Assembly (NCBI GenBank): GCA_963766335.1
Contig: CAVXZA010000002.1
Location: 1,037,386-1,101,385, forward strand
Direction: 5' to 3'
Source: an uncultured Clostridia bacterium
GTDB taxonomy: Bacteria; Bacillota; Clostridia; DUPQ01
Length of the DNA stretch: 64,000 bases
Shown here: positions 14,066-51,915 of the stretch, in pieces
Position numbering within the stretch: position 1 is the stretch's first letter
How the letters are laid out: each line of letters opens with the position of its first letter
Notes under the pieces: generated by a model
Database searches by the model: none
Told to the model about the DNA's origin: nothing
The model's input: the letters and a program-made list of their open reading frames with translations, nothing else
Translations under genes and position numbers: made by a program

Positions 14066-14103
14066 CAGTTCCTCCCATACGCTACAATTATATACTAATT
14101 TAG

Positions 14104-28397: not shown

Positions 28398-28844
28398 ATG
28401 AAAATAGTAGTAGATGCAGATGCCTGTCCGGTAAAGAATGAAATTGTTAAGATAGCAAAAAAACATAAGCTTGAAGTTATTATGGTATGCGATACTTCCC
28501 ATATAATTACCAGTGATTATGCAAAGGTCATAGTTGTTGACAAGGGTGCGGATTCCGTTGATTTTGCTTTAATTAATATTGTTAAAGCGGGAGATGTGGT
28601 GGTAAGCCAGGATTATGGGGTTGCCGCCATGGCACTCGCCAAAAAAGCTTCAGCGATAGGAAACACAGGTAAAATATATACACAGTTCAATATTGATTCA
28701 ATGCTGAACCAGCGCCATCTGGCAAAAGAAAACCGCCGCAAGGGCGGGAAATTCAGCCGGGGTCCAAAGAACCCCGGCATTGATAAAATTAAGTTTATAG
28801 AATCATTTAGGAAGCTCATACTCCCTAATGAGTTAATCCTTTGA
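28398..28844 (+). CDS. UPF0178 (YaiI/DUF188) family protein
   Basis: The N-terminus [12 protein letters not shown] is the UPF0178 family signature. Confidence 0.7.
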
Positions 28845-30779
28845 CTTTTTACTCTGCCACCTTTTCTTCTTTAAAATGCCTTTTACAAGTGCATATCCTC
28901 CAAGGGCGCCGGCTCCGCCGCCTAAAACTGCAAGCGAACCTCCCAGTATTTTAATTAAATCACTCTGTCTTTCCAATTCCTCTTCCATTTCTTTTGTTTC
29001 CTCCGGTGTAGGCGGTTTAATGGTAGGTGCCGGTGTTGGTGTGACTGTAGGTCCGGAAGTCGGTGTTGGCGTAGGGGCAGGTGTCGGTGTTGTATCTGAA
29101 GTTGCTGTTGGTGTGGGCTCAGGGGCGGATGTTGGTTCAGTTGTTGCCGTTGAAGTTGGCGTCGGAGTAGGACTTGGTGTTGGTGTCGGTGTGGGAGTCG
29201 AAGCAGGAGTCGGGGTAGGTGTGGGTGTTGGTGTTGGAGTAGGTGTTGGCGTAGTGCTAGGTGTAGGAGAAGGTTCCTCCTCTTCCTCTTCTCTTGTTAT
29301 ATTCAACTCATAATTTTGAATGGTAACCGTATCCTGTGCAATTACGGTTATGTTGAATACATTCAAACCGACCTGAAGCTGTACTTCGCCGGTCCCGAGT
29401 ACTGTAGCATTCGGATCTTGTGATATGGCGGAAATGATTCTGCCTACATGGTCATATGAGTAGTTTGAGTAATAAATATATGTGTTTGGATCAAATTCCG
29501 GAACTGTTTCGCCGTTTATCTGCAGGTCTTCCAACAGGGCATTGTCGGACAATTCCCTGGTCACATGGACTGTATATTCCTTCGGGAAGCCTGATTCGGA
29601 ATAGCAGGTGACGGGGAATATATTTTCACCGAAGGCAAGCGGGAAAAAACCTTCCCCGCTTACAGTACTGTAAGGGCAGGCCTTCTGTGTAAGTATATAG
29701 GCCTCATCCATGCTGCTTTCGACGGTATGGTAAATATCTGTCGCTAATCCCACCGGATAATCAGTTTTATTTATATTGAATAACATGATACTGTTTATAT
29801 CACATCGTTCCTTATAGATATTTCCAACTGCCGGATCACGGTAGAATATCTTATTATGGTCGTTGACCGCAATTTCCTCCGCAGTTCCATTGTTCGCGAT
29901 AAAACCCGGGCCGCTGCCGGTTGTGACATATGCGGTAAAAATCCCATCGGAGTATTTAACAATATTCTTAGCGAATCCATCAGTACTATAAACCCATGAT
30001 TCAATAAATAAATCCCCGCTGTCATTGACGTCGATATATGATGGATACCATAAGTATGTAGTATCCGACAACCTGTTCCAGAAAACCTCCATCGGGCTTT
30101 TATACCATATGCAGTGTCCCAGGTAATCAGTGATATATATTATATCGTTGTATATGCAGATATCCAGTGGATACAGCATATCCTGACCGGGAGTCGGTAG
30201 TATTGTCCACCCGCCTGCAGGATCAAGATACTGAACCCGGAAATTACCTGTGTCAACAACGAAAAGTTCTCCGGATTCATGGGAAAACATACCATTAGGA
30301 TTGATAAACTCACCCAAGCCGGAGCCCATCCATCCAATCTGAACCCATGAACGGGGACCTAGACCGGGGTCTGGGGTAACCCATATGGCATTGTCCACAT
30401 TATCAGAAGCATAAAGAACATCTTCCTCTATATTAGACCACTCAAGACCTGTGGGATGAAAAACAACATCATGTTCTTCCCAACCCTCTCCATCCCATGT
30501 CCTGACAGCCGGATCCTGATCGTCATTTCCTGCTGCGGTCCGCCCATTATGGGAGTCAAGTCCGCCGGATGAGGTGTTTCTTCCTGACCATCCTCCGGCG
30601 CCTGTATCCCTCCAGCCTCCGGGAGGAGGCACAGGAACGGGAGTGGGATAGGGAACAGGTGCAAACGTCCCCTGCGGTGGATAGGGAACAGGATGCGCAT
30701 AAACTGTAAAGACAATACCAATGGCAAAAGCAGCCACAATAATAAGTGAAACTATTAAAAAAACTTTGGATTTTTTCAT
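28833..30779 (-). CDS. cell-surface protein with NHL-repeat region, cadherin-like beta-sandwich domain and Pro/Thr-rich linker
   Basis: Start at ATG 30779 with a GGGGGA RBS. An N-terminal TM/signal anchor is followed by a Pro-rich segment. NHL-like motifs are present ([28 protein letters not shown]). A cadherin-like region follows. Then comes a PTPTPT linker of about 90 aa, and a C-terminal hydrophobic segment plus a KKKRW tail. Confidence 0.6.
29005..29275 (-). repeat. low-complexity Pro-Thr (PT) linker-coding repeat within the surface protein gene
   Basis: The plus strand reads GGTGTTGGTGTCGGTGTGGG... repeats. The spurious antisense ORF 28876..29313 (poly-GV) arises from this region. Confidence 0.8.
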
Positions 30780-30975
30780 AAGATACTCCCCCTTTTCGGA
30801 TTTTAAAAAAGCAGAAATACCCCGGATTGATTGAATGGGAAATCCGAAAACCTTTGATAGGGTTATTATACGCTTAAGCTTGTTGTTTCTCAAGAAAACG
30901 GTAGCTCTGCCAGTAAAACTATCCCCAAAAATATATTGAAAGATTAATATGCAATCTATTTCACTTTTATCTGTG

Positions 30976-30994: not shown

Positions 30995-31140
30995 AAATTA
31001 ATAGATTCTTCAGGGCAGGGTGAAATTCCCGACCGGCGGTAGAGTCCGCGAGCGTAAGCTGAACCGGTTAGATTCCGGTACCGACAGTATAGTCTGGATG
31101 AAAGAAGTAATTTTTTTATACCCCTGAGGAGGGGTTTCTT
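30995..31140 (+). promoter_or_regulatory. FMN riboswitch (RFN element) with terminator
   Basis: TTCTTCAGGGCAGGGTGAAATTCCCGACCGGCGGTAGAGTCCGCGAGC...CCGACAGTATAGTCTGGATGAAAGAAG matches the RFN consensus. It is followed by the hairpin ACCCCTgaggAGGGGT plus a T-tract. Confidence 0.8.
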
Positions 31141-31164: not shown

Positions 31165-31812
31165 TTGGACAAGAGGAGACAAAAAACGATATGGATTGTA
31201 AAAGTTGCAATGCTTTCGGCAGTCGCAGCGATTCTTATGTATCTGGAAATACCCCTGCCGTTTGTCCCGCCGTTTTTAAGGTTGGATTTCAGCGATATCC
31301 CTGCACTGCTTGCAGGATTTGCAATGGGTCCGCTGGCGGGTGTCGCAGTATTGCTGGTAAAAAATGCAGTGCATGCAACAGCCTCATGGTCGTTTCTGGT
31401 GGGAGAACTGGCTAATTTCACAATAGGGGTGAGTTTTGTTCTGCCGGCGGCAATCATTTATCAAAGGCACAAAAACAAGAAAAGTGCAATTATAGGCATG
31501 CTGGTTGGAGGACTGACTATGGCTGTTACAGCTGGTTTTCTTAATGCATTTGTATTAATACCTCTATATGCTACCGTCCTGAATTTTCCGGTTGAAGCTA
31601 TTGTTGGAATGAGTAATGAAGTTAATCCTCTTATTACGGATTTAAAAACACTGATTTTCATTGGAATAACGCCGTTTAATATAGTGAAAGCGGCTGCAAA
31701 TATACTTATTGCGGCACTGATTTATAAACCGTTGTCGCCATACCTGCACCGCGATTCATTGAAAAAACCACCAAAATCCAGTCCGACAAATTATCCTACG
31801 GACACTAATTAA
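31165..31812 (+). CDS. ribU: ECF-transporter S component, probable riboflavin transporter RibU
   Basis: Small six-TM membrane protein directly downstream of an FMN riboswitch. The start is a tentative TTG at 31165 with AAGGAAGGA upstream; ATG 31210 is the alternative. Confidence 0.7.
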   Translation: MDKRRQKTIWIVKVAMLSAVAAILMYLEIPLPFVPPFLRLDFSDIPALLAGFAMGPLAGVAVLLVKNAVHATASWSFLVGELANFTIGVSFVLPAAIIYQRHKNKKSAIIGMLVGGLTMAVTAGFLNAFVLIPLYATVLNFPVEAIVGMSNEVNPLITDLKTLIFIGITPFNIVKAAANILIAALIYKPLSPYLHRDSLKKPPKSSPTNYPTDTN

Positions 31813-32947: not shown

Positions 32948-33033
32948 TACCGGAAAACGGAACATATCTAATCATATTTTCGTATAACAGATAGACGGAT
33001 AAATTCCGTACTTTGATTTCACTAGGAGTGATT

Positions 33034-34278
33034 ATGATGTATAAGAGAATTATTGCAATTATGATTGCCATAATGCTATTAGGGACAGGTTTGGCGGGTT
33101 GTTCTAAAAATGGTGAAGGAAGTTTGACCAACATTCCGAAAGTTAAGGCAGATACCATAGGCGATGAAGTGGTTGATGCTAATTCGCGGTTTGCATTTGA
33201 CATTTTAAAGGCTGTCTATTCAACTGATACAGATGGCAATGTATTCCTGTCTCCGGCAAGCATATCCATGGCGCTTGCAATGACATGGAACGGCGCCAAT
33301 GGAAATACAAAGGAAGAAATGGCTAAGGCGCTTGGGTTCGATGGTGTGAATGACATGCTAATTAACGGCGGATTCGCATACCTGGTTGATGTCCTGAATA
33401 CTGATGCAGACGGCATCACGACCAACCTGGCCAATTCAATTTGGATCAGGGAAGGATTTCCGGTCCTGGACTCATTTAAAAAAACTAATTCCGACTATTT
33501 CGCAGCTGCAATTGAAGAACTTGATTTCTCAAAGGACGAGGCTTCGGATGTCATAAACGGCTGGGTAAAGAAAAATACCAAAGGCCTCATCGATTCAATA
33601 GTTGATGACGATATTCATCCGGCAACAATAATGTTTCTGATAAATACAATATATTTCAAAGGAAATTGGCAGGTAGAATTTGATCCTGACCAGACATATG
33701 TTTCAGATTTTTATAGTAGCGGCTTGCCTGATGGTAAAGTTGACATGATGTCCTATAAGCGGAATACGCTTTTTCATGAAGCTGATGAATATAAAATAAT
33801 CAGCCTGCCATACGGAGACGGAGGAATGTTCATGGACCTGATTCTGCCTGATGAAGGCACGATGATGGATGAATTTGTAAAGCAATTTAACTACGAAGAA
33901 TACATGACTGCACTTAGCAATATCAATGAAGAGCATGATGTAATTGTAGAGATTCCCAAATTCAAGACAGAATATGAGCTTTCGCTTAAAAATGCATTGA
34001 TAAGCCTTGGTGTGGAGGAGGCTTTCACAGGAGCAGCAGACTTTACCGGTATTAATGAGGGTGGCAATATTTTCATAAGCGATGTAAAACATAAGACTTA
34101 CATAGATGTGAACGAAAAGGGGACTGAAGCAGCAGCTGTAACATCAGTTGAAATGAAACTGACTGCAGCAATGGATCCTATTGTATTCAGGGCAGACAGG
34201 CCTTTCCTCTATACAATCCGGGAAGCTGAGACCGACTCAATATTATTTGCAGGAGTCTTTGATACTCCATCAGAATAA
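33034..34278 (+). CDS. serpin (serine protease inhibitor) lipoprotein
   Basis: Serpin signatures NTIYFKGNW and FRADRPFLYTIRE are present. The N-terminal lipobox is LLGTGLAGCS. Confidence 0.8.
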   Translation: MMYKRIIAIMIAIMLLGTGLAGCSKNGEGSLTNIPKVKADTIGDEVVDANSRFAFDILKAVYSTDTDGNVFLSPASISMALAMTWNGANGNTKEEMAKALGFDGVNDMLINGGFAYLVDVLNTDADGITTNLANSIWIREGFPVLDSFKKTNSDYFAAAIEELDFSKDEASDVINGWVKKNTKGLIDSIVDDDIHPATIMFLINTIYFKGNWQVEFDPDQTYVSDFYSSGLPDGKVDMMSYKRNTLFHEADEYKIISLPYGDGGMFMDLILPDEGTMMDEFVKQFNYEEYMTALSNINEEHDVIVEIPKFKTEYELSLKNALISLGVEEAFTGAADFTGINEGGNIFISDVKHKTYIDVNEKGTEAAAVTSVEMKLTAAMDPIVFRADRPFLYTIREAETDSILFAGVFDTPSE

Positions 34279-34348: not shown

Positions 34349-34822
34349 TTAATAATCCTTGACAAGTTTAGCTCGGACATAACCCCGGTCAGTGGCAGTG
34401 CTTTCGACATAAAAGCCGCGCCCGTAATAAAAGCGAACTAAATCTGTGTAGTTTGAGGCTGAGTAAAGATATGCCTTTTTCAAGCCAAGTTCCTTAATTT
34501 CAGCATCTATCAGATTCATAAGTGATTTTCCAATGCCGATATTATGATAATCAAGCCTGACGCCAAAACGCGAGATATGTGCAATGTCACCTTCAATCTC
34601 AAAACGGATTGTACCAACCGGCACATCATTAACATACGCAATGAATACTTCCGACGACCTGATTGCAATTACAGTTTCTTCAATTGTCTCATCCAGGGCT
34701 TCCATGCTGCCTGAAAGTCCGGTATCTTCCATATATTTTGTGAAGGCTTCCTGCAGGATATCGATAATAGCAGCGGCATCTGCGGATTTTGCCTTCCTTA
34801 CGGTAAATGAATAAACCGGCAT
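34349..34822 (-). CDS. GNAT-family N-acetyltransferase (candidate short-form N-acetylglutamate synthase)
   Basis: 157 aa with an acetyl-CoA binding motif (RGFYV..G.G..L). Last gene of the arg operon, 2 nt after the argF stop. Confidence 0.7.
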   Translation of the reverse strand: MPVYSFTVRKAKSADAAAIIDILQEAFTKYMEDTGLSGSMEALDETIEETVIAIRSSEVFIAYVNDVPVGTIRFEIEGDIAHISRFGVRLDYHNIGIGKSLMNLIDAEIKELGLKKAYLYSASNYTDLVRFYYGRGFYVESTATDRGYVRAKLVKDY

Positions 34823-34824
34823 TG

Positions 34825-35748
34825 CTACTCTCCTCCCATTAATTTAACCATGACAGCTTTTTGAACATGCAGGCGGTTTTCCGCTTCGTCAAAAATACGC
34901 GACTGCGGTCCGTCCATGACTTCAGCAGATACTTCAAAGCCCCTGTAACCCGGCAGGCAATGAAGAAAAATTGCAGTTGCCTCAGCTTTTTTCATCAAAT
35001 CCTTATCAACTATAAAACCGGTGAAATCTTTAATCCTGCGTTCTTTTTCTTCTTCCATACCCATGCTGACCCAGGTATCTGTATAAACAGCGGATGCATC
35101 CTTTACAGCCTCTTCTGCATTATGCCCGACGCTGACCTTACTGCCGGATTCCTTAGCAAATTCATATGCTTTGGCAATAACATCCGCATCAGGTTCATAT
35201 CCCTTGGGCGTGGCAATCGATACATCCATTCCAACCTTTGCGCACCCATAAAGAAGTGAATTAGCCATATTGTTACCGTCGCCGACATATGCAAGCTTCC
35301 TGCCTTCAATATTTCCAAACTCTTCATATATGGTAAAGATATCAGCCAAAACCTGACAGGGGTGAAGCAAATCGGTAAGCGCATTTATGACAGGAATGCT
35401 GCCATATGCCGCAAGGTCTTCAACATCGCTCTGCTTAAACGTCCGGATCATGATGCCGTCAACATATCGTGACAGTACCTTTGCCGTATCTTCGATGGTT
35501 TCGCCCCGGCCAAGCTGTATGTCGTTTGAGCTTAGGAAAAGGGGATTGCCGCCTAATTGATACATACCTGTCTCAAAAGAAACCCGTGTCCTGGTAGATG
35601 ATTTCGTAAAAATCATAGCCAACGTCTTACCTTTGAGCAAATGGTGTTCAATACCATTCTTAGTCTCATATTTCAATTTTTCAGCAAGGTTGAATATGTC
35701 CAGGATTTCTTCTTTAGATAGATGATAAAGTCCAAGCAAATGTTTCAT
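34825..35748 (-). CDS. argF: ornithine carbamoyltransferase
   Basis: STRTR carbamoyl-phosphate site, HCLP motif, length 307 aa. Confidence 0.85.
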
Positions 35749-38700
35749 TGTATTTCTCCTTTAATATATTTAGAATAACTGTCAAGCGGCAGAACCCCGC
35801 AGGTTTTCTCGCCGGTGAAATAATCCACCACAGCCAGAGCCGCTCCTGCAGTATCCAGGTTTGTAATTGAAGGAACGTTATATTCTATTGATGTCCGCCT
35901 TAAAAGGAATCCGTCCCTTTCAGGAAGCTTTCCTCTTGTCGGTGTATTTATCATTAAGGCAATCTGACCCTTTTTAACAGCTTCTATTTCATCGGCATCA
36001 GTCATTTTTTCACATACAATGTCATTAGAATTAAAAAAGTCCGATGTTCCCGAGGTTGCGCAAAGGGAATATCCATGTTCAATAAGCCTTTTGGCTAACG
36101 GCAGGCATTCTTCCTTGTCCCTGTCGGTAATACTGAGGAGGACTTTTCCGGATGAAGGAATTGTCAGACCCGAAGCTAATAAAGCCTTGTATAGTGCTTC
36201 TTCATAAACCTTTGATACTCCCATGACTTCACCGGTGGATTTCATTTCGGGGCCGAGGAATGTATCGAGGGTCGTAATCTTCGAGAATGAGAAAACAGGA
36301 GCTTTCACAGCAGTAAATTCCGGTTCTTTCGCAAGGCCGGGCCTATATCCCAGGTCTCCGAGCTTCCTGCCCATAATGAGCTGGGTAGCGACATTAACCA
36401 TAGGAATGCCGGTTATTTTACTTAATACTGGTATTGTCCTGCTTGCGCGCGGGTTTACCTCGATGACATACACTTTTCCGGCTGCGTCTGCTACAAACTG
36501 TATATTGAAAAGACCTACAATCTTAAGCGCTTTTGCCAGGCGGACAGTATAATTTACTACTGTCTCTTTTACATGAGATGAAACATTTCTTGTTGGATAG
36601 ACGGCAATGCTGTCACCCGAATGGACGCCGGCTCGTTCAATATGTTCCATGATTCCCGGAATCAGGACATCCGTCCCGTCGCATATGCCGTCTACTTCAA
36701 TTTCCATTCCAATAATATATTTATCAATCAGTATAGGATGGACCGGGGAAATGTCTACAGCCATTGCCATATATTCTTCGAGAGTAGCGTTGTCATATAC
36801 GATTTCCATGGCCCTTCCCCCGAGGACATACGAAGGCCGTACAAGAACAGGAAATCCTATCTTAGATGCAATTTCATGTGCCTCGTCGTATGAAAAGGCC
36901 GTCTTTCCCGGCGGAATGGGAATTTCTTGTTCATCCAGCAGCATCAGAAACCTGTTCCTGTCTTCGGCCATATCAATGCTGTCCTTGGAGGTCCCGAGTA
37001 TCTTAACCCCTGCTTCGTGAAGCGGGGCGGCAAGATTAATGGAAGTCTGACCGCCGAACTGCAGGATGACTCCCAATGGATTCTCCTTTTCGACTATATC
37101 AAGGACGCCTTCTTTTGTGAGTGGGTCGAAATACAATTTATCGGATATATCAAAATCGGTGCTGACGGTCTCTGGATTGTTATTTATTATGACTGATTCT
37201 ATCCCCATGTTCCTAAGCGCCTCAACCGAATGAACGCTGCAGTAATCGAACTCTATTCCCTGGCCTATGCGGATAGGGCCTGAACCGATGACAAGGACTT
37301 TGTCGTTGTCATTGTATTCAATATCGTCCTTTTCTTCGTATGTAGAATAGTAATAGGGCGTTACAGCCTCAAATTCCCCCGCACAGGTGTCAACTAGTTT
37401 ATATACTGGCTTAATGGGATATTTTTCCCTTAGCTCAAGTATTTTCTGAAGAGGCACATTAACTAGATTGGCTATGTATGAGTCGCCGAAACCCACTTGC
37501 TTTGCTTTCAGGTAAAGAGGGTAGTCAAGCCATGCTATGCCGGCATTTTTTATTTCTTCTGCAACATCAACAATTTTTTTGAGTTTCATCAGGAAAAACA
37601 TATCAATACAGGTTATTTTGTGAATTGTTTCTGCTGCTATGCCTCTTTGGAGAAGCTTGAAAATTGCAAACAGCGATTCATCTTTAGGATGCTTAATATA
37701 TTCCATAAGAGTATCGATTGACGCATTGTCAAATAATTGCAAACCAAGCTGATAATTAAGTTTTATATCAAGGGAATCGATGGCCTTAAGAAGAGCTTCT
37801 TCAAAATTCCTTCCTATTGCCATAACCTCGCCTGTGGATTTCATCTGTGTCCCCACACTGCGGTCGGCGGAATTGAATTTATCAAAAGGCCAACGCGGCA
37901 CTTTTACCACAACATAATCCAGGCTGGGTTCAAAGCAGGCGTAAGTGTTGCCTGTAATGGGATTAAGAATTTCATCCAGGTTAAGCCCGATTGCAATTTT
38001 CGCTGCGGACCGAGCTATCGGATAGCCGGTGGCCTTGGATGCGAGGGCGGATGAACGGCTGACCCTTGGATTAACTTCGATTACTATATAATCAAAACTA
38101 TCAGGATCCAATGCGAACTGGATATTGCAGCCGCCCTTTATGTCCAGAGCCCTGATAATCTTTACAGAAGCTGTCCTGAGCATCTGATAATCCTTGTCGG
38201 AAAGAGTTTGGCTGGGGGCTACTACTATACTGTCGCCGGTGTGTATTCCGACAGGATCGAAATTTTCCATATTACATACAGTTATGCAGTTATCATTACC
38301 GTCGCGCATAACCTCATATTCAATTTCCTTCCATCCGGCAACGCTTCTCTCGAGAAGCACCTGGCTTATCATTGAGAGTTTAAGGCCTTTCCCGCAAATC
38401 TCCATCAATTCTTTGTGGTTATTGGCAATGCCTCCGCCGGATCCACCCATAGTATATGCAGGGCGTATGATTACAGGGTATCCTATCTCTTGAACAAATG
38501 CCGTTGCCTCCTCCAACGAATTAACTATCTCAGAAGGAGCTATTTTTTCATTTATGGATAACATTGTGTCTTTGAACATCTCACGGTCTTCTGCTTTCTT
38601 TATTGACTCAAGCGAAGTTCCGAGCAGCTCTATATCCATTTTATAAATTATGCCGTCTTCAGCTAGTTCAATGGCCATGTTAAGACCGGTCTGACCGCCA

Positions 38701-38969
38701 AGGGAAGCCAGGATACCATCAGGTTTTTCTTTGACGATTATTTTTTTTACATATTCCAGGGTTATTGGTTCTATATATACTTTGTCGGCCGTTTCCATGT
38801 CAGTCATAATAGTTGCGGGATTGCTATTGACCAATACTACTTCAATGCCTTCTTCCCTCAGGGCGCGGCAAGCCTGGCTCCCGGAGTAATCAAACTCTGC
38901 AGCCTGTCCGATTATGATGGGACCCGAGCCTATGACCAGGACTTTTTTTATGTCTTTTCTCTTAGGCAT
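35745..38969 (-). CDS. carB: carbamoyl-phosphate synthase large subunit
   Basis: 1074 aa with duplicated ATP-grasp domains and an MGS-like C-terminus. Confidence 0.95.
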
Positions 38970-40047
38970 CAGGTTCGCCTTTCTTCATCATGTCTATGAA
39001 ATCATCAAAAATATATGCCGAATCCTCCGGACCGGGAGCGGCCTCCGGATGATATTGTATGCTGAGAAGCGGAAGTTTATCATGCCTGAATCCTTCCACA
39101 GTCTTGTCATTAACATTTATATGGGTTAAATTGATTTTCGCCGGAACATCGGCAGGAAATACTGCATAATTATGATTCTGGCTTGTTATACAGCATTTAC
39201 CCGTAATCATATCCTTTACAGGGTGATTTCCTCCGTGGTGGCCGAACTTGAGTTTATATATTTTCATTCCCAAGGCAAGAGCCAGGAGCTGGTGCCCTAA
39301 ACAGATGCCAAGCAATGGTATTTCTTTTTGTGCGAGTTCCCGGACAACAGGTATGATTTCAGTCAGGACCCTGGGATCGCCCGGGCCGTTAGATAGTAAT
39401 ATACCGTCCGGGTTAACAGCTAATATATCTTTGACGGGAGCAGACGAGGGCATTATAGTGATTCTGCAGCCTCTTTTTTTCAAAGAGCGTAAAATATTGC
39501 TCTTAACTCCGAAATCCATCAGACATACGTGAAGGCCTTCTCCGGGTATTTCATATGCCTTATCAGCAGATACTTCTTCTACAAGATTACGTTCAATGAC
39601 AGCTTCGGCCTTAAGTTTATCAAGCAGTATTTCAACGTTTCCCGAGAGAGTGGAAATAACCCCATACATGCTTCCGAAATTGCGTATATGCTGGGTCAGG
39701 GAACGCGTATCCACTCCTTTGATTCCTATAATCCCGTTGTCCTCGAAATATTTATCAGGGGCGGATTCAGCTCTGAAATTACTATGATAGTCGCAAAGCT
39801 CCTTAACGATAAATCCCTCGATATGAGTCTTGTAGGATTCATCATCTTCAGAATTCATTCCGTAATTGCCTATAAGGGGATAGGTCATGCACACCATCTG
39901 CCCATTGTAGGAAGGATCGGTGGTGATTTCCTGATAACCTGTCATGCAGGTATTGAAAACAACTTCGCCAAATGCATCGCCCGAAGCACCGAATGATTCT
40001 CCTGTATAGTAAGTGCCGTCTTCAAGGACGAGAACAGCTTTCATCAA
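38962..40047 (-). CDS. carA: carbamoyl-phosphate synthase small subunit (glutaminase)
   Basis: CPSase small-chain N-domain plus a class I GATase with the catalytic LGICLGHQ motif. Confidence 0.9.
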
Positions 40048-41255
40048 GATTCCTCCCCGGAAATTTCCTCAAGTATATCTTCAAGCATATCGCATACTAA
40101 ATCAACATGCTTCTTTTTGAGAATCAGTGGAGGAAGAAGGCGTATTATTGATGATTTCACACTGCCGATGAGTATATTATTTTCGAACATTTTATCTTTT
40201 ACTTCAATGGCAATCTCTTTATTAAATTCAATACCTATCATAAGGCCCAGACCCCGGACGTCCTTTATAATGTCATAGTGCATCTTAAGCCCATTCAGCT
40301 TGCCAATCAGGTATTTCCCCATATATTCGCTGTTTTCAACCAGTTTTTCATCTTTAAAAGCCCTGAAGACCGCAAGACCTGCCGCACATGCCAGGGGGTT
40401 GCCGCCGAAAGTCGATCCATGGTCGCCGGGTTCAAAGTATCTGGCGACATAGTCTTGTGCACAAACGGCACCTATGGGGAAACCTCCCCCCAGTGCCTTG
40501 GCCAATGTGAATATGTCGGGTTTGACATCAAAATGCTCATATCCGTACATCTTGCCGGTTCTGCCCATTCCAGACTGGACTTCGTCAAATATAAGGATTA
40601 TATCATTGGCAAAACATAAACTTCTAACGCCTTTTATATAATCATATGTTGCGGGATTCACACCGCTTTCCCCCTGTATTGGTTCAAGCATGACAGCGCA
40701 GGTATTCTCATCGACTGCATCCTTAAGTGCCTGAAGGTCGTTCATAGGAACGGATTTAAATTTCGGTGTCAGGGGGCTGAAGGGTTCCTTATATTTAGGT
40801 TGCCCGGTTGCGGCTATAGTGGCAAGCGTCCTCCCGTGGAATGAGTTTTCAAGGGTAATAATCTCATACCTTTTGTCGTTGCCTTTTTTCTTGTGATACA
40901 AACGGGCTAGTTTTATAGCGCCTTCATTGGCCTCGGCACCGCTGTTTGAGAAAAACACTTTGTCTGCGCATGACGACCTGCATATTGTCTTGGCAAGATT
41001 AGCCTGGTTTTCAATGTAATAAAGGCTTGAACAATGAATAAGCTTTCTGGCTTGCTCAGTTATAGCGTCAACCAGCAAAGGATGGCTGTGGCCAAGGGCA
41101 TTTACGGCGATACCGCCGAGAAAATCGAGGTATTGTTTATTATTGTTTGTATATAGATACATACCATTGCCGTAATTGAACGCCACCGGTGTCCTGTCTC
41201 CGAAAGTGTTCATAAAAAATTGTTTGTCCCTGAAAATAATTTCGCTAAGTTCCAT
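40044..41255 (-). CDS. argD: acetylornithine aminotransferase
   Basis: Class III PLP aminotransferase. The arg operon context supports the ArgD assignment. Confidence 0.85.
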   Translation of the reverse strand: MELSEIIFRDKQFFMNTFGDRTPVAFNYGNGMYLYTNNNKQYLDFLGGIAVNALGHSHPLLVDAITEQARKLIHCSSLYYIENQANLAKTICRSSCADKVFFSNSGAEANEGAIKLARLYHKKKGNDKRYEIITLENSFHGRTLATIAATGQPKYKEPFSPLTPKFKSVPMNDLQALKDAVDENTCAVMLEPIQGESGVNPATYDYIKGVRSLCFANDIILIFDEVQSGMGRTGKMYGYEHFDVKPDIFTLAKALGGGFPIGAVCAQDYVARYFEPGDHGSTFGGNPLACAAGLAVFRAFKDEKLVENSEYMGKYLIGKLNGLKMHYDIIKDVRGLGLMIGIEFNKEIAIEVKDKMFENNILIGSVKSSIIRLLPPLILKKKHVDLVCDMLEDILEEISGEES

Positions 41256-41352
41256 TGTGCTTCCTCCTGTAATAGTAATCCGGGCATCCGCCTGGCCATA
41301 ATGTCAACTATGCTTATTTTTTAAAATAACCGTACTGGGTTCTATTTAAAAA

Positions 41353-43221
41353 TCATGTTGCAGTGGCCTTTTTTAGCTTGAATTTCATTTTTATTCGGTT
41401 TGAATTTTTCACCGCAATGTATTTTTTGTATTTGCCGTTCCTGTTTCCGAGAATATCTGTTGAGGCTTGGAAATTTCCATCTGTTTCGATAGTGTAAATC
41501 CATCCTAATGCCGAAATTGTAAGACGGTTGTCCTCCTCTTTTATAATAGACTTATCACGGCCGTTTGTCATGAAAGCCGGCGTCAGAAAATAAATTTTAT
41601 CTTCTTCCGGGTTGTTTAAAATTGATTCAATTTCAACCCCTTCGCCGGTAATTTTATAAATTTCTGTAACACCGTCAATCCCTTTAAGAGCTTCCCCTGA
41701 ATAGCTTAATGACAGCACTGTTTTGTCAGGGGATTCTTCAATTACCTCAGTTTTGTGTAATAATCCATTATTGAACGAGTCTTTGAATGCTTCAAAGGAT
41801 CCTTTGCTGTCAAAATTATCCTTAATATAATCAAAGCTATGGCTGCTTTTATTGCTTGCGGTTGCCAGAAATTCTATATCGTTTGATTTATTCCAGCCGG
41901 GCGAAAGCGCCATGGCTTCGGGCACGCAACCCGGCGTGCCGTACCTGTGATGACGAAGAATCCCGGCTGAACCCGAGATAGCCAGCTCAGTTGGAACCCC
42001 GTTTTTATGAATCCGCCCGAGACCGGTGGAATCGTAAAAGAAATCTGCCGCTGTGTCCAATTCTATGGAATATGAAGCGCAGTTTGCAAATACCTTATGG
42101 AAGTGTTCCGTGGTTTCAAATACATATCCGCCCAACTCAGCAGGGCAGGGGAACTCATCTATCGTGTCATCTGCAAAAGGCATTCCTATGAAAAGGAAAA
42201 CACCCATTGTCATCATATATTTGTCAAAATAGCCATAACCTTCAACGCCGAATTTGCTTTCCACAGGGTAGAAATTTTTCATATGTCGGGCGCCGTCATC
42301 AGCTTTAAGCCACCTTGAGATTGATTTTATTGCCAGCCTGGCTGCCCTTTTATACATCCCTGCAAGTTTTAGGTTCCCTTCTTTCTTCCATCTTGTGGCT
42401 TCGTATTCAAAATTGGATGTCAGCAAAGACTCATTAAAAAGATATTGGTTGCTGCGGCCTCCGAATGGGAGCTGGAAAGCCGAAGATTGATAGAATAAGG
42501 CTGTTAATGCTCCTTTTTTAAGATTGTCATCAAGCTTTTTTGCATATTTCCCGTTATAACCGTAGCCAGTAATAAGTTGTGCCTGGACACGGGTCGTAAG
42601 GTCGTAAAGCATTGGATTGTAAGGGTCCATATACATCCCATTATCGTCGAAATACTTAAACTGATGGTCCCAGTATTTATCAAAGAACTCTTCTGTATCT
42701 GTATATCCCTCTGTTTCCAGCAGCCACGAACCGGCCATGGCATATATATTCCAGTTGCGTATGTGATCCCAGCTTTTGCGGTGCGTTTCAGTGTTGCTAT
42801 ACTGTGTTTCAGGGTCAACCTTTCCTAAAAGGGTCAACCACTCTTTTTGTTTTTCATCACTAACAAACGGCTTCATGGCTTTGAAACCAAGCATTGTTTC
42901 TTTTAATGCGAAATCCAGTGTATTTGGAGGAACCTGCCGGTAAAAATCATTACACAGTGCTTCCATCATTGAAAACCACAGCTCTTTATATTCCGGTATC
43001 CGCCCATTGGAAAGCAGGCCCGCGATTCCGCAGGCTATACGTGAATAAGCATGGATGTCGTCAACCATCCCGCCGGGTTCCGGAAGACGGTCTTCAAGCG
43101 ATTTTTTATCATATGCTTTTACACAGAGCTCAATTACATCAAGATAATCTTTTTTTCCAACTCCGGATGTTGTGAAATTCTCAGGCATTTCTGCGTTTTC
43201 TACATATTTGAAAAAATCCAT
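41353..43221 (-). CDS. hypothetical cytoplasmic protein (about 620 aa), family not recognised
   Basis: Long intact ORF inside the arg operon with no signal peptide and no confidently recognisable motif. Start chosen at ATG 43221 with AAGGAAGGG upstream; a GTG at 43236 is the alternative. Confidence 0.5.
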   Translation of the reverse strand: MDFFKYVENAEMPENFTTSGVGKKDYLDVIELCVKAYDKKSLEDRLPEPGGMVDDIHAYSRIACGIAGLLSNGRIPEYKELWFSMMEALCNDFYRQVPPNTLDFALKETMLGFKAMKPFVSDEKQKEWLTLLGKVDPETQYSNTETHRKSWDHIRNWNIYAMAGSWLLETEGYTDTEEFFDKYWDHQFKYFDDNGMYMDPYNPMLYDLTTRVQAQLITGYGYNGKYAKKLDDNLKKGALTALFYQSSAFQLPFGGRSNQYLFNESLLTSNFEYEATRWKKEGNLKLAGMYKRAARLAIKSISRWLKADDGARHMKNFYPVESKFGVEGYGYFDKYMMTMGVFLFIGMPFADDTIDEFPCPAELGGYVFETTEHFHKVFANCASYSIELDTAADFFYDSTGLGRIHKNGVPTELAISGSAGILRHHRYGTPGCVPEAMALSPGWNKSNDIEFLATASNKSSHSFDYIKDNFDSKGSFEAFKDSFNNGLLHKTEVIEESPDKTVLSLSYSGEALKGIDGVTEIYKITGEGVEIESILNNPEEDKIYFLTPAFMTNGRDKSIIKEEDNRLTISALGWIYTIETDGNFQASTDILGNRNGKYKKYIAVKNSNRIKMKFKLKKATAT

Positions 43222-43232
43222 TACCCTTCCTT

Positions 43233-44240
43233 TCACGACTGTGTCATCATGACTGCTTTTTCTGCTGTAATTTCAAATTCGAGTGGTTTTTCTTCAATAA
43301 TATTGCTGATTTCTTTTATCATAGCTTCTGCATATTCCAATACAACGCTGGAGCCGGACACATGAGGCATGCAAATTACGTTTGGAAGATTTCTTAGCTC
43401 ACTATCCGGTGCAAGGGGTTCTTCTTCAAAAACATCAAGTGCGGCATATATTCTGCCGGATTTTAACACTTCTGTTAAATAGGCTTCGTCAATTATGCTG
43501 CCCCTGGCAGTATTAACAAGAAGAGCATTGTTTTTAATGGTGTCAATCCGGTCTTTTCCTATCAGTCTTTGTGAGCCGGGGTTCCGGGAAGCGTGAATTG
43601 AAATTATATCGGCTTTTCTAAACGCAGCATCCAGGTCATGTATGAAATCTACATCGGAATATGCATTGATTACTTCTTTTGTTAAATAGGGATCATATAC
43701 TTTCAGGTTTATATTGAAAGGAACAAGAAGTTCGTATAGGAATTTTGCAATGTCACCGAATCCAATAAAAAGCACATCGGCTCCGTGGAGGCTTTTCATG
43801 TCCCCGTACTCTCCAATACCACTTTTCCAGCCGCCGTTCCTTGTTATATTTGTATATTTAAAGAGTTTTAAACGCGACGCAAGGAAATAAGCCAGCGTGC
43901 TTTCAGCTACGGCCTTCGCCATGACTTTATTTGAGCTTGATACCCGGATTCCCTTTTTATATACTTCGGGACATACTATGTTATATACGCTTCCGGCACA
44001 GTGTCCTATGAACTTAAGGCTATCAGCATTTTCAAGGACCTTTGGTGTAATCTGCGGCGATTGCCAGTGGGTTATGCATACGTCCATGCCTTTGATTTCC
44101 TCCGCTAGCTCTTCTTCTGTCCACGGGCGGTCAAGCATGTTTTGTTTAACATGTCCGAGTGCTTCCAGTTTTTTCATGATTTTACGGGGAAAATATTTTT
44201 CTTTAATCATTCCTTCACAAACACTTAAAAGAATATTCAT
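43233..44240 (-). CDS. D-isomer-specific 2-hydroxyacid dehydrogenase family protein
   Basis: NAD-binding motif GIGEYGDMKSLHGADVLFIGFGDIAKFL and a catalytic His/Glu/Arg region are present. The start overlaps the argB stop (TGATG). Confidence 0.75.
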   Translation of the reverse strand: MNILLSVCEGMIKEKYFPRKIMKKLEALGHVKQNMLDRPWTEEELAEEIKGMDVCITHWQSPQITPKVLENADSLKFIGHCAGSVYNIVCPEVYKKGIRVSSSNKVMAKAVAESTLAYFLASRLKLFKYTNITRNGGWKSGIGEYGDMKSLHGADVLFIGFGDIAKFLYELLVPFNINLKVYDPYLTKEVINAYSDVDFIHDLDAAFRKADIISIHASRNPGSQRLIGKDRIDTIKNNALLVNTARGSIIDEAYLTEVLKSGRIYAALDVFEEEPLAPDSELRNLPNVICMPHVSGSSVVLEYAEAMIKEISNIIEEKPLEFEITAEKAVMMTQS

Positions 44241-45154
44241 CACGATTCCTCCCATACTTTCTCGTCTTCAAAGTACTTATCTTTTGCCTGGGAAATCATT
44301 GTTCCTATTCCTTTGTTAGTGAATATTTCCAGTAGTATGCAGTGTGGGATTCGACCGTCAATTATATGGGTGCGGCCAACGCCGTTTTCGATTGCATGGA
44401 CGCAGCCGAGAACCTTTGGTATCATGCCGCCTTCAATTACGCCCTCGCCGATGAGGGTATGAACTTCATCTGTTGAAAGGGCATGAAGTATATCACCATC
44501 GTCTTTTGAAGTTTTAACACCTTCAACATCGGTCAGCAGGATTAGTTTTTCAGCCTTCATTGCACTTGCTATTTTCCCGGCGACTGTATCAGCGTTTATA
44601 TTATATGCCTTGCCCTCTGGACCCGATCCGATAGGTGCAATAACAGGTATATATTCATAAGATGACAAACGGGCTAATGCAGCAGCATCAATTTCAGTAA
44701 TATCTCCGACATAGCCGATGTCAACAGCTTCACCGTTAACTTCTGCATAATGCTTTTTGCATTTTATTATGCCTGCATCAATTCCCGAGATGCCGATGGC
44801 CTTGCCGCCTTTTTTATTCATCCGTGAAACTATATCCTTATTTGTTTTGCCAACAAGCACCATCTGCACCACTTCCATTGTGGCTTCATCGGTAACCCTT
44901 AGGCCATTTATGAAATTTGATTCTATGCCTGAATCCTTTAATGTACTTGATATGGCCGGACCTCCGCCGTGTACTATAATAGGATTCATACCGATATACT
45001 TAAGAAGCGTGACGTCTTCCATCACTGAATCTTTCAGTGTTTCATTTATCATTGCGTTTCCACCGTACTTTATGACGACTGTTTTCCCGTAAAGCCGCTG
45101 TATATAAGGCAGTGCTTCAATCAGTATTTCTGCTTTTTTAATTAATTTTTCCAT
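44240..45154 (-). CDS. argB: acetylglutamate kinase
   Basis: Amino-acid kinase fold with an ArgB-like sequence ([17 protein letters not shown]). Confidence 0.9.
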
Positions 45155-45200
45155 AATTTACCTCATTCCGGATTTCATCATTTCCTGATTCAGGTTGAAA

Positions 45201-46241
45201 TCATATGTATAGTCCGGCGCTTAGCAAACCGTCGGTTTCCGGGTATCCGTGCATTAAGTTCAGGTTCTGTACAGCTTGTGAAGCCGCCCCTTTGCCAAGG
45301 TTGTCAATGGCTGAAATCACAATAATCCTGTTCATTCGTTCGTCGTAAAAGGGGGCGATGTCCGCAAAATTCGTTCCGGCGACGGCTTTAACTGACGGTA
45401 TGTCTCCATCTTCCTTGATCCTTATAAAAGTCTCTCCTTTATAATACATATTATATATATCAATTAAATCCTTGGTTTTCAGTGGCTTTTTTGCATTAGT
45501 ATAAATCGTAGCCGACATACCCCTTTTAAAGGGAGCCAGGTGGGGTGTGAATCCCGCGGTTACGGTTTTGCCTGCCAACAGTGACAGCTGCTCTTCAATT
45601 TCGGTTGTATGCCTGTGACCGGTTATTTTATACGGAGCAAAATTTCCGTCAACCTCACAGTAGGAGTAAGGTAGGCTGGCTTTTCGCCCGGCGCCTGAAA
45701 CACCGGATACTGCGCTTATATTAATAGTATTGATATCTATCAGATTATTTTCCAGCAGCGGTGCGAGGCCAAGGATTGAACAGGTGGGATAACAGCCGGG
45801 ATTAGCTATTAATGCCGCATCTTTGATTTTCTCGCGGTTAAGTTCCGGCAATCCGTAGACAGCCTTTTCAAGAAGGTCAGGGTATCCATGTGGAAGTCCA
45901 TATGTTTTTTCATATAATTCCGCTGAAGTGTACCGGTAGTCGGCGCTGAGGTCAACGACCTTTTTACCGGATGATATCAGTTTGAAGACGGCTTCCTGGC
46001 TTGCCGCATGAGGGAGTGCAGTAATAAAGCAATCTGCTTTCCCTGATATAACATTATAGTCAGTGGCTTCGCACACAAGGTCGCAGATACCGCTCAAACT
46101 GGGATAAACATCAGAAATTTTCCTGTCTTTGAAGGTTTTGGAAACAACGCAGGTTATCAAAAAACCGGGATGACCGGCAAGGAGCCTTATGCATTCAGCC
46201 CCTGCATAACCCGTAGCACCGATGATTCCTACTTTTATCAT
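45201..46241 (-). CDS. argC: N-acetyl-gamma-glutamyl-phosphate reductase
   Basis: Semialdehyde dehydrogenase fold with an active-site Cys (NPGCYPT). First gene of the operon. Confidence 0.9.
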   Translation of the reverse strand: MIKVGIIGATGYAGAECIRLLAGHPGFLITCVVSKTFKDRKISDVYPSLSGICDLVCEATDYNVISGKADCFITALPHAASQEAVFKLISSGKKVVDLSADYRYTSAELYEKTYGLPHGYPDLLEKAVYGLPELNREKIKDAALIANPGCYPTCSILGLAPLLENNLIDINTINISAVSGVSGAGRKASLPYSYCEVDGNFAPYKITGHRHTTEIEEQLSLLAGKTVTAGFTPHLAPFKRGMSATIYTNAKKPLKTKDLIDIYNMYYKGETFIRIKEDGDIPSVKAVAGTNFADIAPFYDERMNRIIVISAIDNLGKGAASQAVQNLNLMHGYPETDGLLSAGLYI

Positions 46242-46323: not shown

Positions 46324-46339
46324 ATGCATAAAAATGCAA
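46324..46339. promoter_or_regulatory. putative ArgR/AhrC operator (ARG-box-like) upstream of argC
   Basis: ATGCATAAAAATGCAA resembles the TGnATwwwwATnCA ARG-box core. It lies about 85-100 bp upstream of the argC start in an AT-rich promoter region. Confidence 0.25.
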
Positions 46340-48422: not shown

Positions 48423-51400
48423 ATGAAAATATTACTCAAACCGCTGCAGGACATCCCGCAGTTCGACGGGATTATAAAGACCATTTCAGCCGGAAAAGGA
48501 CCCGTTGGAGTCAACGGCCTGGTTGATCCGGCAAGGGCTATTTTCGCATATGCGCTTTTTCAGAAAACCGGAAGACGATGTCTAATACTAACCCACAGCC
48601 GGGTCAAGGCAAAAAAAATATATGAAGGACTGCGTATATTTGATTCCGACGGTGCATTGCATTTTCCCACAAGGGAACTGATGCCTTTCGAAATAGAAGC
48701 TCGAAGCCACGGTTATGAGACTGAAAGAGTAAATGCACTTTACAGATTCGCCATAAATGATTACTCGGTTGCCGTCGCTCCTATTGAAGCAATGTGCATA
48801 AGAATTCGGCAAAAAGGAGGAATTTCTTAAAAAAGTCATAAACATAGAGAAAGCAAAAGAGTATGAAAGGGACAAACTGTCCGAAGAGCCTTACTGGCAT
48901 CCGGTTATGAAAAATGCGACATGGTTGAAAGCGAAGGCCAGTTCGCGGTTCGCGGAGACATCTTTGATATATATTCACCCGGCAGCGACAGGCCATGCAG
49001 AATTAATTTTTTCGGAGATGAGGTAGAAAATATCAAATTTTTTGACCCGGGCACCCAGCTGTCGGATGAAGAAACTGCAATCTGTATTAATATTGCCTTG
49101 CAGCGAGCAGACCGGCTCACTAAAAGATATCATTGAAAAGTTAAAAGCAGTTCCAAATCCGCCAGCGCCGATTTCCTCGGATATAGAAAAGATTGAAAAC
49201 GGTCTTTTGCATTTTCCGATGGACAAACATTTCGCCTTGGTGGACGGAACCTGTTTTGCCACATCATATATAGATGAAGATACAATCATTATCCTTGATA
49301 ATGATAAACGCTGCCTGCGAAAAATGAATACCGTTCTTGAAAGAATACGGCACCACATGTGAAAAACTTCTTGAAACACAATCCGCCGTGCCTGAATCAT
49401 GCATGATGGTAGCCGGTCTGTTTGAATCAATGGGGAAAAGGGAACCTGGGATTATTATCCCCGACATAACCGGTCCGGATGACGAGTTTAGCCTTTACAG
49501 GCAATTTAGCATACTTACAAGGGAAAACCCGTCTTACGGCGGCAGGATGGACCTGCTTCTAGAGGACATCAGGAAATGGAAATCAAAAGGGCGCAGAACA
49601 GCTCTTATTGCACCGTCAAAAAAGAGCAGCCATATATTATCCGATTACCTTGCATCCAATAATATAGACATACACGGCCGAAACAATTATAACGGAGACA
49701 TACACGCAGGAACAGTTGTCATGCTGGACAACGGACCTGCTGAAGGATTTGAAATACTTGAAGCCGGCCTTTGTGTGGTCGGGAGCGGTAAAATTTTCAG
49801 AAAAAGCAAGAAAGAGCAGACAGAACGGAAAAAGCAAAAAGGCATGGATTTATTCGCTGACTTAAAACCAGGGGATTTCGTTGTCCATGATTACCATGGA
49901 ATAGGCAAATACATAGGTATAGAGAATATCAAAGCCGCGGGAATACGCCGCGATTATGTAAAGGTTGAATATAAAAAGAGCGACTACGTATATATACCGG
50001 TAGATAAACTTGATTCAATCCAAAAATACATTGGAAGCGGGGGAAGGGCCCCGAGGCTGTCAATACTGGGCGGCAAAGAGTGGGAGAATACAAAAGCGCG
50101 GGTTAAGGAATCCGTCAAGAACATTGCCAAAGAACTTGTTGAACTATATGCCAAACGTAAAGCTAACAAGGGGCACAGATATTCTGCCGATACAATATGG
50201 CAGGTGTCATTTGAAGAAGAATTCCCGTTTGAAGAGACAAACGACCAACTGCGCTGCATTGATGAAATAAAAGGGGATATGGAATCCGATATCATAATGG
50301 ACAGGCTTCTCTGCGGGGATGTAGGCTATGGAAAAACGGAAGTGGCGCTGCGGGCTGCATTTAAGGCGGTTATGGATGGAAGACAGGTGGCATTCCTGGT
50401 TCCTACAACTGTGCTTGCCTACCAGCATTACAATACATTTAAAAGCAGGATGAAGAATTTCCCTGTTAACATCGAACTTATGTGCCGTTTCAGAAGCAAA
50501 AAACAGCAGCAGCGGACATTAGAGGGTTTAAGGGCGGGAAGCGTTGACATTGTGGTCGGCACGCACAGGCTGCTTCAAAAAGACATTGTGTTCAAAAAGC
50601 TTGGACTGCTTGTAGTAGACGAAGAGCAGAGGTTCGGTGTAGAGCATAAAGAAACAATTAAGAACTATAAAAACGACATTGATGTCCTTACCCTGACTGC
50701 AACTCCCATTCCGCGGACGCTTCACATGTCGCTGTCAGGTATACGTGACATAAGCGTCATTGAAGATCCGCCTGCAAAGCGGTTCCCCGTCCAGACATAT
50801 GTAATGGAATATGACCCGGATGTAATAAGGGATGCAGTCGACCGTGAAATCAGCAGGGGAGGCCAGGTTTTCTACCTTTATAACCGTGTCAGGGAAATGG
50901 ACAGCAAGTATGCTAAACTTAAACAACTCCTGGGCGATGAGGTAAGGATAGGAATCGCCCACGGGCAGATGGATGAAAATAAGCTTGAAAATGTAATGGT
51001 TGATTTCATCAAAGGCGATTATGATGTCCTTCTATGTACAACAATTATAGAATCAGGCCTGGATATCCCGAATGTCAATACAATGATTATTGAAGACTCG
51101 GACAGGATGGGACTGTCGCAGCTCTACCAGATAAGGGGCAGGGTAGGCAGGTCCGACAAAGTCGCCTATGCATACATAACCCATAAACATGGGAAAGTTA
51201 TAACAGAGGACGCATCTAAAAGACTTGAAGCAATAAGGGAATTCACGGAGTTCGGTTCAGGATTCAAAGTGGCAATGCGCGACCTTGAAATCAGGGGCGC
51301 CGGAAATCTTCTCGGCGCAAACCAGCATGGACATCTTGAAAGGATTGGCTACGATCTATATGTAAGGATACTTAAACAGGGCTGTCAAGGAACTCGGCGG

Positions 51401-51915
51401 GGAAAGTTGAAGAAGAAGAGATTCGGACAGCTGCACTGTTGAACTTAATATAAATGCATTTATTGACAAAGAATACATCAGCAATGACCTGATGCGAATG
51501 GAAATGTATAAGAAAATAGCGGTTGTTTCAGATGAAAAACAGAAAAAGAGACTGCTTAGATGAAATGACAGACCGTTTCGGAACACCGCCTGCACGAAAC
51601 TATGGTGCTGCTTGAAGCGGCTCTTGTAAAAAACCTTGCAGCGGCATGTGGTATTGAATCCGTAACTAAGAAACAAATCAGATATAATATTCACTTTTGC
51701 AGAAGGACAGATTCCCGCCTCCTGAAATTCTTGCCAGGCTTCCTGAAATCCTGCCGGGAAGGGCGGTGGTCAGTATGGGAGTTAAGCCCGGAATCAGGCT
51801 TAATAATTTCAAACGGGAAGATGTAGATTTTTCGGCAATATATAAATTGCTGGCATGTATTGAAAATCAGCAAATCATAATATATAGAAACAGTATGTTA
51901 TCTTGCAAAAGATGA
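48423..51915 (+). pseudogene. mfd: transcription-repair coupling factor Mfd, disrupted by multiple frameshifts
   Basis: Mfd-homologous segments occur in alternating frames (48423-48830 f0, about 48815-48915 other frame, 48921-49136 f0, 49042-49362 f1, 49337-51442 f2, then at least four more frame changes to 51915). The helicase motifs DVGYGKTEVALRAAF and the GDFVVHDYHGIGKY RID region are recognisable. Confidence 0.8.

Follow-up and report, generated by a model that had tools for sequence, protein, structure and literature searches.

A protein with the predicted fold of heparinase II/III-type polysaccharide lyases and its 2-hydroxyacid dehydrogenase partner, apparently inserted in an arginine operon of a Clostridia bacterium

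Polysaccharide lyases (PLs) composed of an (alpha/alpha)n-toroid and an antiparallel beta-sandwich form a class that includes PL8, PL12, PL15, PL17, PL21, PL35, and PL39. The heparinase III enzymes of PL12 (PDB 4FNV, 4MMH, and 5JMF) are heparan-sulfate-degrading lyases that are secreted or periplasmic and act on polymers. The exo-type oligo-uronate lyases of PL15 (Atu3025, 3A0O; exoHep, 6LJL) and PL17 (Alg17c, 4NEI; 9IRQ) are close known systems for the gene described here, and the reductases downstream of these lyases are of the SDR type and not D-isomer-specific 2-hydroxyacid dehydrogenases (2HADH). PL35 contains glycosaminoglycan lyases such as GAGase II/VII (PDB 8KHV/8KHW) and a chondroitinase (9O3Q), and human dermatan-sulfate epimerase 1 (PDB 6HZN) is a eukaryotic Golgi enzyme that is also compared below. 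The catalytic triplets of the fold class have been tabulated in the PL35 structure paper (PMC12088678, Table 4) as N192/Y246/H401 in PL35, N240/Y294/H424 in PL12, N201/Y258/H413 in PL17, N186/Y239/H405 in PL39, and N336/Y390/H555 in the PL15 enzyme exoHep. The Asn and Tyr are separated by 53–57 residues in these five families, and the catalytic His of the tabulated lyases lies approximately 50 residues into the beta domain; for instance, the PL35 toroid ends at W350, and its catalytic His is H401 (PMC12088678).

Gene X was found in an uncultured Clostridia bacterium, in a stretch of DNA of 64 kb that was analysed as a whole (the window). It can be read in two forms.

41353..43221, minus strand: gene X, 622 amino acids from the ATG at 43221, with a predicted toroid at residues ~1–350 and a predicted beta-sandwich at ~360–620
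41353..43236, minus strand: gene X with the alternative start GTG at 43236, giving 627 amino acids

The shorter form is the better gene model because its ATG is preceded by the Shine-Dalgarno sequence AAGGAAGGG and its product matches the database protein P0001 exactly (100% identity). The original prediction had placed a long, intact open reading frame at 41353–43221, which is indeed present on the minus strand; it named no strand, and its coordinates are those of the 622-residue form, while its title gave the 627 residues of the longer one. Translation of the plus strand over the same interval gave no open frame, with stop codons throughout. On direct reading, the N-terminus of X (MDFFKYVENAEMPENFTTSG) has no hydrophobic segment resembling a signal peptide, in agreement with what had been claimed, and X is predicted to be a cytoplasmic protein. 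Two promoter-like sites, which are consensus matches only, occur inside the 3' end of the gene (41678-41651 and 41571-41543).

A word-indexed search found at least 375 homologs of X, and the family spans 414 species-level genomes; an exhaustive HMMER search gave 1,102 cluster representatives (clusters at 50% identity), of which 473 were found at E<=1e-30. The hosts include Clostridia, Paenibacillus, Saccharibacillus, Lentisphaerae, Kiritimatiellia, Verrucomicrobia, Aminicenantes, and Thermoprotei MAGs; the Clostridia are from gut and environmental settings, and some of the hosts are archaea. Since the homologs are many and approximately 95 positions are conserved at >=90%, X is regarded as a genuine gene and not a chance open reading frame. 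The claim that no family could be assigned also held: X had no match in Pfam, even at E<=10, none in NCBIfam, and none among PDB sequences by phmmer or with a 60-sequence profile, which returned chance coiled-coil matches only. Similarly, the X region carries no Pfam domain in any of the 120 listed homologs of the word-indexed search, and X does not belong by sequence to the existing PL-family Pfam models (Hepar_II_III_C/_N, Lyase_8, Alginate_lyase, and DUF4962). Alignment by hhalign of the X family profile with a Hepar_II_III_C protein of Paenibacillus that is encoded beside an X homolog gave a probability of 0.2%, i.e., no similarity. The literature held nothing relevant on a characterised X member, on new PL families (PL43-46), or on a uronate route with 2HADH and xylose-isomerase-like proteins. 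Set apart by the Pfam, NCBIfam, and PDB searches, X probably represents a new family within a known enzyme class.

The class is indicated by structure. An AlphaFold2 model of X, computed with 60 homologs, has very high confidence (pLDDT 95.4, pTM 0.94); a helical alpha/alpha toroid takes up residues ~1-350 and a beta-sandwich residues ~360-620. This is the two-domain fold of the lyase class introduced above and exactly the arrangement, lyase- or epimerase-like, that had been guessed. Foldseek comparison of the model with the PDB gave 56 matches at E<=1e-3, the top 43 of which are all polysaccharide lyases of the toroid and beta-sandwich class, while the matches listed beyond them are GH154/glucuronate-dehydratase and cyclic-glucan-synthase entries. 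X is thus assigned with high confidence, in fold and in family, to the heparinase-type lyase/epimerase fold class. The likeness is structural, as identity to the known members is low. PL35 lyases share 9-12% identity with X and have no sequence or profile match to it, and X differs from them in its cytoplasmic location and its 2HADH partner. Heparinase III shares 9% identity; X has no match to the Hepar_II_III_C or _N models and, unlike these secreted or periplasmic enzymes, lacks a signal peptide. The PL15 and PL17 exo-lyases are larger than X (700-770 amino acids) and without sequence similarity to it, and PL15 has an additional N-terminal domain. Dermatan-sulfate epimerase 1, with 8% identity, illustrates another possibility, in which X would share the fold and the initial chemical step of the lyases but work as a C5-epimerase, dehydratase, or hydrolase on a terminal or internal acidic sugar, its product being processed by 2HADH and other oxidoreductases. 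The top full-length structural matches are nearly all lyases, which speaks against this alternative, even if they are compatible with an epimerase still.

The following positions of X are of interest for its chemistry.

42754..42756, minus strand: codon of N156, candidate carboxylate neutraliser, assigned by position only
42604..42606, minus strand: codon of Y206, candidate general acid/base, assigned by position only
42007..42009, minus strand: codon of H405, candidate general base, in the motif GRIHK
42718..42729, minus strand: codons of S165 to L168, the clade replacement of the family residues Glu165 and Arg168

Asn is found at position 156, the first residue of a helix that covers 156-169, in 328 of 329 homologs, and Tyr at position 206, 50 residues further on, is equally frequent (328/329). 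His occupies position 405 in 286/329 homologs and is replaced by Gln in 23/329; it lies ~50 residues inside the beta-sandwich, as deep in that domain as H401 of PL35 (PMC12088678). The Tyr-to-His distance is longer in X, with 199 residues compared with 155 in PL35 and 130-166 in the tabulated lyases (PMC12088678). From the order and spacing, which resemble the published ones, we infer N156/Y206/H405 as a candidate Asn/Tyr/His triplet. Other strongly conserved residues are R256 (329/329), Y335 (328/329), R211 (325/329), D207 (324/329), N593 (323/329), N316 (321/329), R61 (320/329), Y329 (319/329), and H313 (293/329), and the many invariant Arg residues among them (R61, R211, and R256) would suit an acidic substrate.

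The members of the family that lie in arginine operons form a clade (the arg clade) with replacements of their own. In a first alignment of 60 sequences, E165 and R168 were present in all 51 sequences from outside the clade and replaced in all nine from within it, Glu165 by Ser, Tyr, or Leu and Arg168 by Leu; Asn161 is replaced by Ala. Among the 329 homologs, 33 lack Glu165, and the arg clade accounts for 27 of these 33. The two positions are 9 and 12 residues down the helix that starts at N156, where they may either line the cleft or take part in a salt bridge at the surface or an interface, and arg-clade proteins otherwise keep the conserved core residues. Because E165 and R168, otherwise invariant, are lost in the arg clade, its substrate specificity may differ from that of the rest of the family.

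The gene immediately upstream of X encodes the partner enzyme.

43233..44240, minus strand: 2HADH, D-isomer-specific 2-hydroxyacid dehydrogenase, 335 amino acids, or 340 amino acids from the ATG at 44255

Both domains of the dehydrogenase family are present (2-Hacid_dh_C, PF02826, 4e-41; 2-Hacid_dh, PF00389, 2e-11), and the scores to the NCBIfam equivalogs (SerA, glyoxylate reductase, GhrB, and others) are all far under the cut-offs. ORFs were called in 89 loci (numbered L001 onward) and searched with the proteins of the window. Outside the arg clade, 2HADH is next to X in three loci, namely, L016 (X, 2HADH, sulfatase), L023 (X, xylose-isomerase-like TIM barrel, 2HADH, GH88), and L073 (OYE, SDR, FAD_binding_2, TIM barrel, 2HADH, X, a 758-aa unknown protein, KDPG aldolase, KDG kinase), and the two are fused in a fourth, where P0085 of L089 is a protein of 962 amino acids composed of X and 2HADH. 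The identity of the dehydrogenase is 61-100% inside the clade and <=47% outside, with the same gap as for X. Its closest relatives outside the clade occur in loci with sugar ABC and AraC genes; one adjoins a TIM-barrel protein, and none of those checked is adjacent to X. These arrangements indicate that 2HADH is a recurrent, true partner of X.

The neighbours of X outside the arg clade were counted in ~75 loci. The most frequent are AraC-type regulators (33 loci), extracellular solute-binding proteins (23), and ABC permeases (17-18), followed by YesM-like histidine kinases (8), OYE flavoenzymes (6), FAD_binding_2 flavoproteins (6), GFO/IDH/MocA oxidoreductases (5), and SDRs (5). GH88 proteins resembling unsaturated glucuronyl hydrolases were found near X in six of these loci; GH88 needs the unsaturated uronate that a lyase makes, which also counts against the epimerase, dehydratase, or hydrolase alternative. 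This observation, too, would be compatible with an epimerase; the alternative is considered rather unlikely. In Paenibacillus, an X homolog is flanked by an ABC sugar transporter and the Hepar_II_III_C protein mentioned above. Multidomain members of the family carry CBM96, dockerin/cohesin, DUF5722, GDSL esterase, beta-helix, aldose 1-epimerase, DUF4861, or DUF4962 domains, and a polysaccharide deacetylase (CE4) domain is also fused to X in some members. Taken together, the contexts and fusions carry the signature of a carbohydrate-active family that would act on acidic glycans; the link to acidic-sugar import and breakdown holds for the X family and not for the window.

The same neighbourhoods also bear on a different explanation, in which X would belong to an undescribed oxidoreductase-dependent route of sugar or glycoside breakdown instead of the classical lyase-GH88-KduI/KduD one, its substrate being oxidised before, or reduced after, the action of X by the neighbouring 2HADH, TIM barrel, OYE, SDR, FAD_binding_2, and GFO/IDH/MocA proteins. 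A block of X, OYE, SDR, and FAD_binding_2 genes recurs in L051, L058, L073, L081, and L089, and L052 has the OYE and FAD_binding_2 genes without the SDR of that cluster; AP_endonuc_2 proteins accompany X and 2HADH in L023, L073, and L089 and the nearest 2HADH relative in L094, and the five loci with GFO/IDH/MocA proteins would fit as well. However, such neighbours occur in just ~5-6 of the ~75 loci, most loci have transporter and regulator genes only, and the window has 2HADH alone of all these neighbours, which makes this route quite improbable as an account of X.

In the window, X is located in an operon with the minus-strand order argC-argB-2HADH-X-argD-carA-carB-argF-GNAT.

45201-46241, minus strand: argC, Pfam Semialdhyde_dh
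44240-45154, minus strand: argB, Pfam AA_kinase
40044-41255, minus strand: argD, assigned by Pfam
38962-40047, minus strand: carA, assigned by Pfam
35745-38969, minus strand: carB, assigned by Pfam
34825-35748, minus strand: argF, assigned from its own translation and from the OTCace_N/OTCace matches of the syntenic counterpart in L090
34349-34822, minus strand: GNAT, assigned from weak NCBIfam acetyltransferase matches and from Acetyltransf Pfam matches of the counterparts in L002/L003/L090
34287..34324, minus strand: intrinsic-terminator-like hairpin with a 17-bp stem and a T run, 3' of GNAT
46325..46338, minus strand: palindrome TGCATTTTTATGCA, upstream of argC and overlapping the promoter, candidate ArgR operator

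The stop codon of argB and the start codon of 2HADH overlap in TGATG, 9 nt separate the 2HADH stop from the ATG of X, and the gap between X and argD is 97 nt in the window compared with 2 nt in relatives, whose gene gaps are 2-3 nt. Between 34000 and 46600, the minus strand has no strong terminator-like site other than the hairpin after GNAT; no internal terminator or riboswitch was found around X, and Rfam gave no regulatory RNA in the arg operon. The palindrome occurs once in the 64-kb window, with 0.08 occurrences expected, and is kept upstream of argC in L002 and in L090, which lacks the 2HADH-X pair, with one mismatch in L003/L004. It resembles an ARG box. As the genes overlap or abut, a single strong terminator follows GNAT, and one operator-like palindrome precedes argC, X probably shares a transcript with the arg genes, made from the promoter and operator that already served them.

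The arg neighbours of X are confined to the clade of >=60% identity, i.e., to 11 of the 89 loci (L001-L004 and L009-L015), and no association of X with arg genes was found in independent lineages among these 89. Close relatives keep the order argC-argB-2HADH-X-argD-carA-carB-(argF)-GNAT, and their non-arg flanks (MsmX-like ATPase, HTH_30 regulator, FtsE/FtsX, M23 peptidase, serpin, and prephenate dehydrogenase) are also syntenic, so the linkage of X to arg genes is inherited synteny and not an independent association. The relatives that come next to ArgB, at 74% identity, are those of a sister lineage represented by L090, which has the same upstream flanks and the order argC-argB-argD-carA-carB-argF-GNAT without 2HADH-X, with a gap of 12 nt between argB and argD. 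Because the sister locus has the operon and the flanks without the pair, 2HADH-X is read as a two-gene insertion between argB and argD of an already complete operon. A recent horizontal transfer of the pair was also considered and was rejected; there is no GC break across 2HADH-X, and the insertion is therefore not recent.

This history has to be weighed against the possibility that the pair was recruited to an arginine-linked function, acting on arginine, ornithine, or an N-acetyl intermediate or supplying a missing argJ/argE step. The pair lies within the arg operon, is probably transcribed with it, and stays intact there across divergence down to ~61% identity, a retention that need not be expected of a neutral passenger, and the arg clade has lost the two residues, E165 and R168, that are invariant elsewhere. 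Furthermore, argJ and argE are absent from the operon, with none found by motif in the window, where a motif scan for argJ, argG, and argH was also negative. However, the operon of L090 likewise lacks argJ and ends in the same GNAT gene, so the pair replaces nothing, and replacement of argJ by it was rejected. In its fold and its ~95 conserved residues, the candidate triplet among them, X is of a sugar-acid enzyme type, it is tied to arg genes in no other lineage, and Pfam and NCBIfam give it no homology to a known arginine-pathway enzyme (ArgA-H, ArgJ, and CarAB). To our knowledge, 2HADH has no place in the known arginine pathway (ArgA-H/ArgJ). Recruitment to arginine metabolism is accordingly given only a slim chance, and it is likely that X is not an arginine-pathway enzyme.

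The placement of X between the 2HADH gene and argD in the original prediction agrees with the Pfam-annotated gene order, and its idea of co-regulation is likely in so far as the gene overlaps, the terminator, and the operator-like palindrome suggest co-transcription with the arg genes; the proposed role in arginine or carbamoyl-phosphate metabolism found no support. The view of X as a novel enzyme of that metabolism is at odds with the pair-free operon of L090, with arg neighbours confined to one clade, and with the carbohydrate-utilisation loci that the X family and the nearest 2HADH relatives occupy elsewhere. Conservation of the gene neighbourhood across genomes, which had been suggested as a check, is seen within the clade, where the arg linkage is kept, and not in other lineages. 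A confident hit to a class unrelated to amino-acid metabolism, combined with independent transcription, had been named as grounds for giving up the idea; the structural link to such a class is confident, and no sign of independent transcription was seen.

The overall explanation favoured here, with a probability of roughly 0.55, is that X is a uronate-lyase-type protein that forms a sugar-acid pair with 2HADH, both being inserted passengers of the arg operon. X would bind an imported uronic-acid-containing oligosaccharide in the cytoplasm, with Asn156 neutralising the carboxylate of the uronate and with His405 and Tyr206 serving in C5 proton abstraction and leaving-group protonation. The beta-elimination would yield a 4,5-unsaturated uronate that rearranges to an alpha-keto acid, and the NAD(P)-dependent 2HADH would reduce a keto-acid intermediate en route to the KDG pathway. 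The specific beta-elimination mechanism and the role of the dehydrogenase are put at about even odds. 2HADH and X would have been inserted together into an existing operon under ArgR-type control and would now be transcribed as its passengers, not as a step of arginine synthesis. A more speculative extension, regarded as distinctly unlikely, is that the X family and 2HADH, often with TIM barrel, OYE, SDR, and FAD flavoproteins, constitute an undescribed cytoplasmic route for acidic sugars, of which the arg clade would hold a variant without E165 and R168 that ArgR-type control ties to arginine status in the use of an acidic substrate.

The locus is moderately interesting to carbohydrate enzymology and less so to the study of arginine metabolism, for which it brings a caution, as the position of X in a biosynthetic operon appears here to reflect an insertion event rather than a part in the pathway. 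How an essential operon tolerates a foreign cassette could be studied on the natural pair of operons with and without the insertion. The unusual 2HADH partner hints at a non-canonical downstream pathway, and if the activity is confirmed, X would represent a new lyase or epimerase family of ~1100 sequence clusters that are unrecognised by Pfam and NCBIfam.

The predicted cytoplasmic enzyme X, encoded between argD and the gene of its partner, a D-isomer-specific 2-hydroxyacid dehydrogenase (2HADH), is distinguished in the arg-operon clade (homologs of at least 60% identity with arg neighbours) by substitutions at Glu165, Arg168, and Asn161, within codons 161–168 (window 42718–42741). Glu165 and Arg168 are kept in all 51 non-clade sequences of A1, the first alignment of X homologs, and the clade accounts for 27 of the 33 sequences that lack Glu165 among 329 homologs. 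These substitutions may reflect an altered specificity or interface.

Elsewhere, homologs of X adjoin a recurring block composed of an OYE-type Fe-S flavoenzyme, an SDR, and an FAD_binding_2 flavoprotein (loci L051, L052, L058, L073, L081, and L089), found in Clostridia of gut and rumen. The L052 version is devoid of the SDR, and L073 and L089 additionally possess a xylose-isomerase-like TIM barrel and 2HADH. To our knowledge, this block matches no known pathway.

The spacer between X and argD (window 41256–41352) is 97 nt long, compared with 2 nt in the relatives L002–L004. It contains TTGACA together with a short inverted repeat that is GC-rich; no convincing promoter or terminator was found in it. 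The 3' end of X contains consensus matches 300–400 nt upstream of argD:

41543–41678 (-), two sigma-70-like matches, 10/12 each

By their sequence, these could serve as internal promoters for argD-carAB.

The arg operon and its surroundings comprise the following features:

34349–46241 (-), whole arg operon
34349–34822 (-), GNAT of 157 aa, last gene of the operon
33013–34278 (+), ORF of 421 aa with a lipoprotein-like N-terminus, just beyond the operon end
31002–31113 (+), FMN riboswitch (113 bits)
31165–31812, multi-pass membrane protein of 215 aa, downstream of the FMN riboswitch
14141–14310 (-), lysine riboswitch (87 bits), directly upstream of ORF 13064–14140

At the position corresponding to the 421-aa ORF, L002 and L003 have genes of 411–413 aa with a Serpin domain (PF00079); a serpin of bacterial origin flanking the operon is conserved in the arg-operon clade. 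The 215-aa membrane protein is presumably a riboflavin transporter. Nearby, a predicted secreted protein of 686 aa (28833–30893, -) carries an extended linker rich in Pro and Thr (TPTPTPTP...) as well as a hydrophobic anchor at its C-terminus. On the other side of the operon, the successive ORFs 48423–48830 and 49337–51442 (+) look by eye like fragments of a single long repair protein of the helicase type (Mfd-like) interrupted by frame changes or stops. The interruption may be due to a frameshift or a sequencing error, or the gene may be a pseudogene.

The arg operon of the window (34349–46241) lacks argJ and ends with the GNAT, a layout identical in both respects in the sister lineage (L090). 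Models of amino-acid N-acetyltransferases match this GNAT only weakly, with E about 1e-4 and scores far short of the cut-off. A short N-acetylglutamate synthase is one possible identity; the arginine pathway would then be linear, with its deacetylase encoded outside the window.
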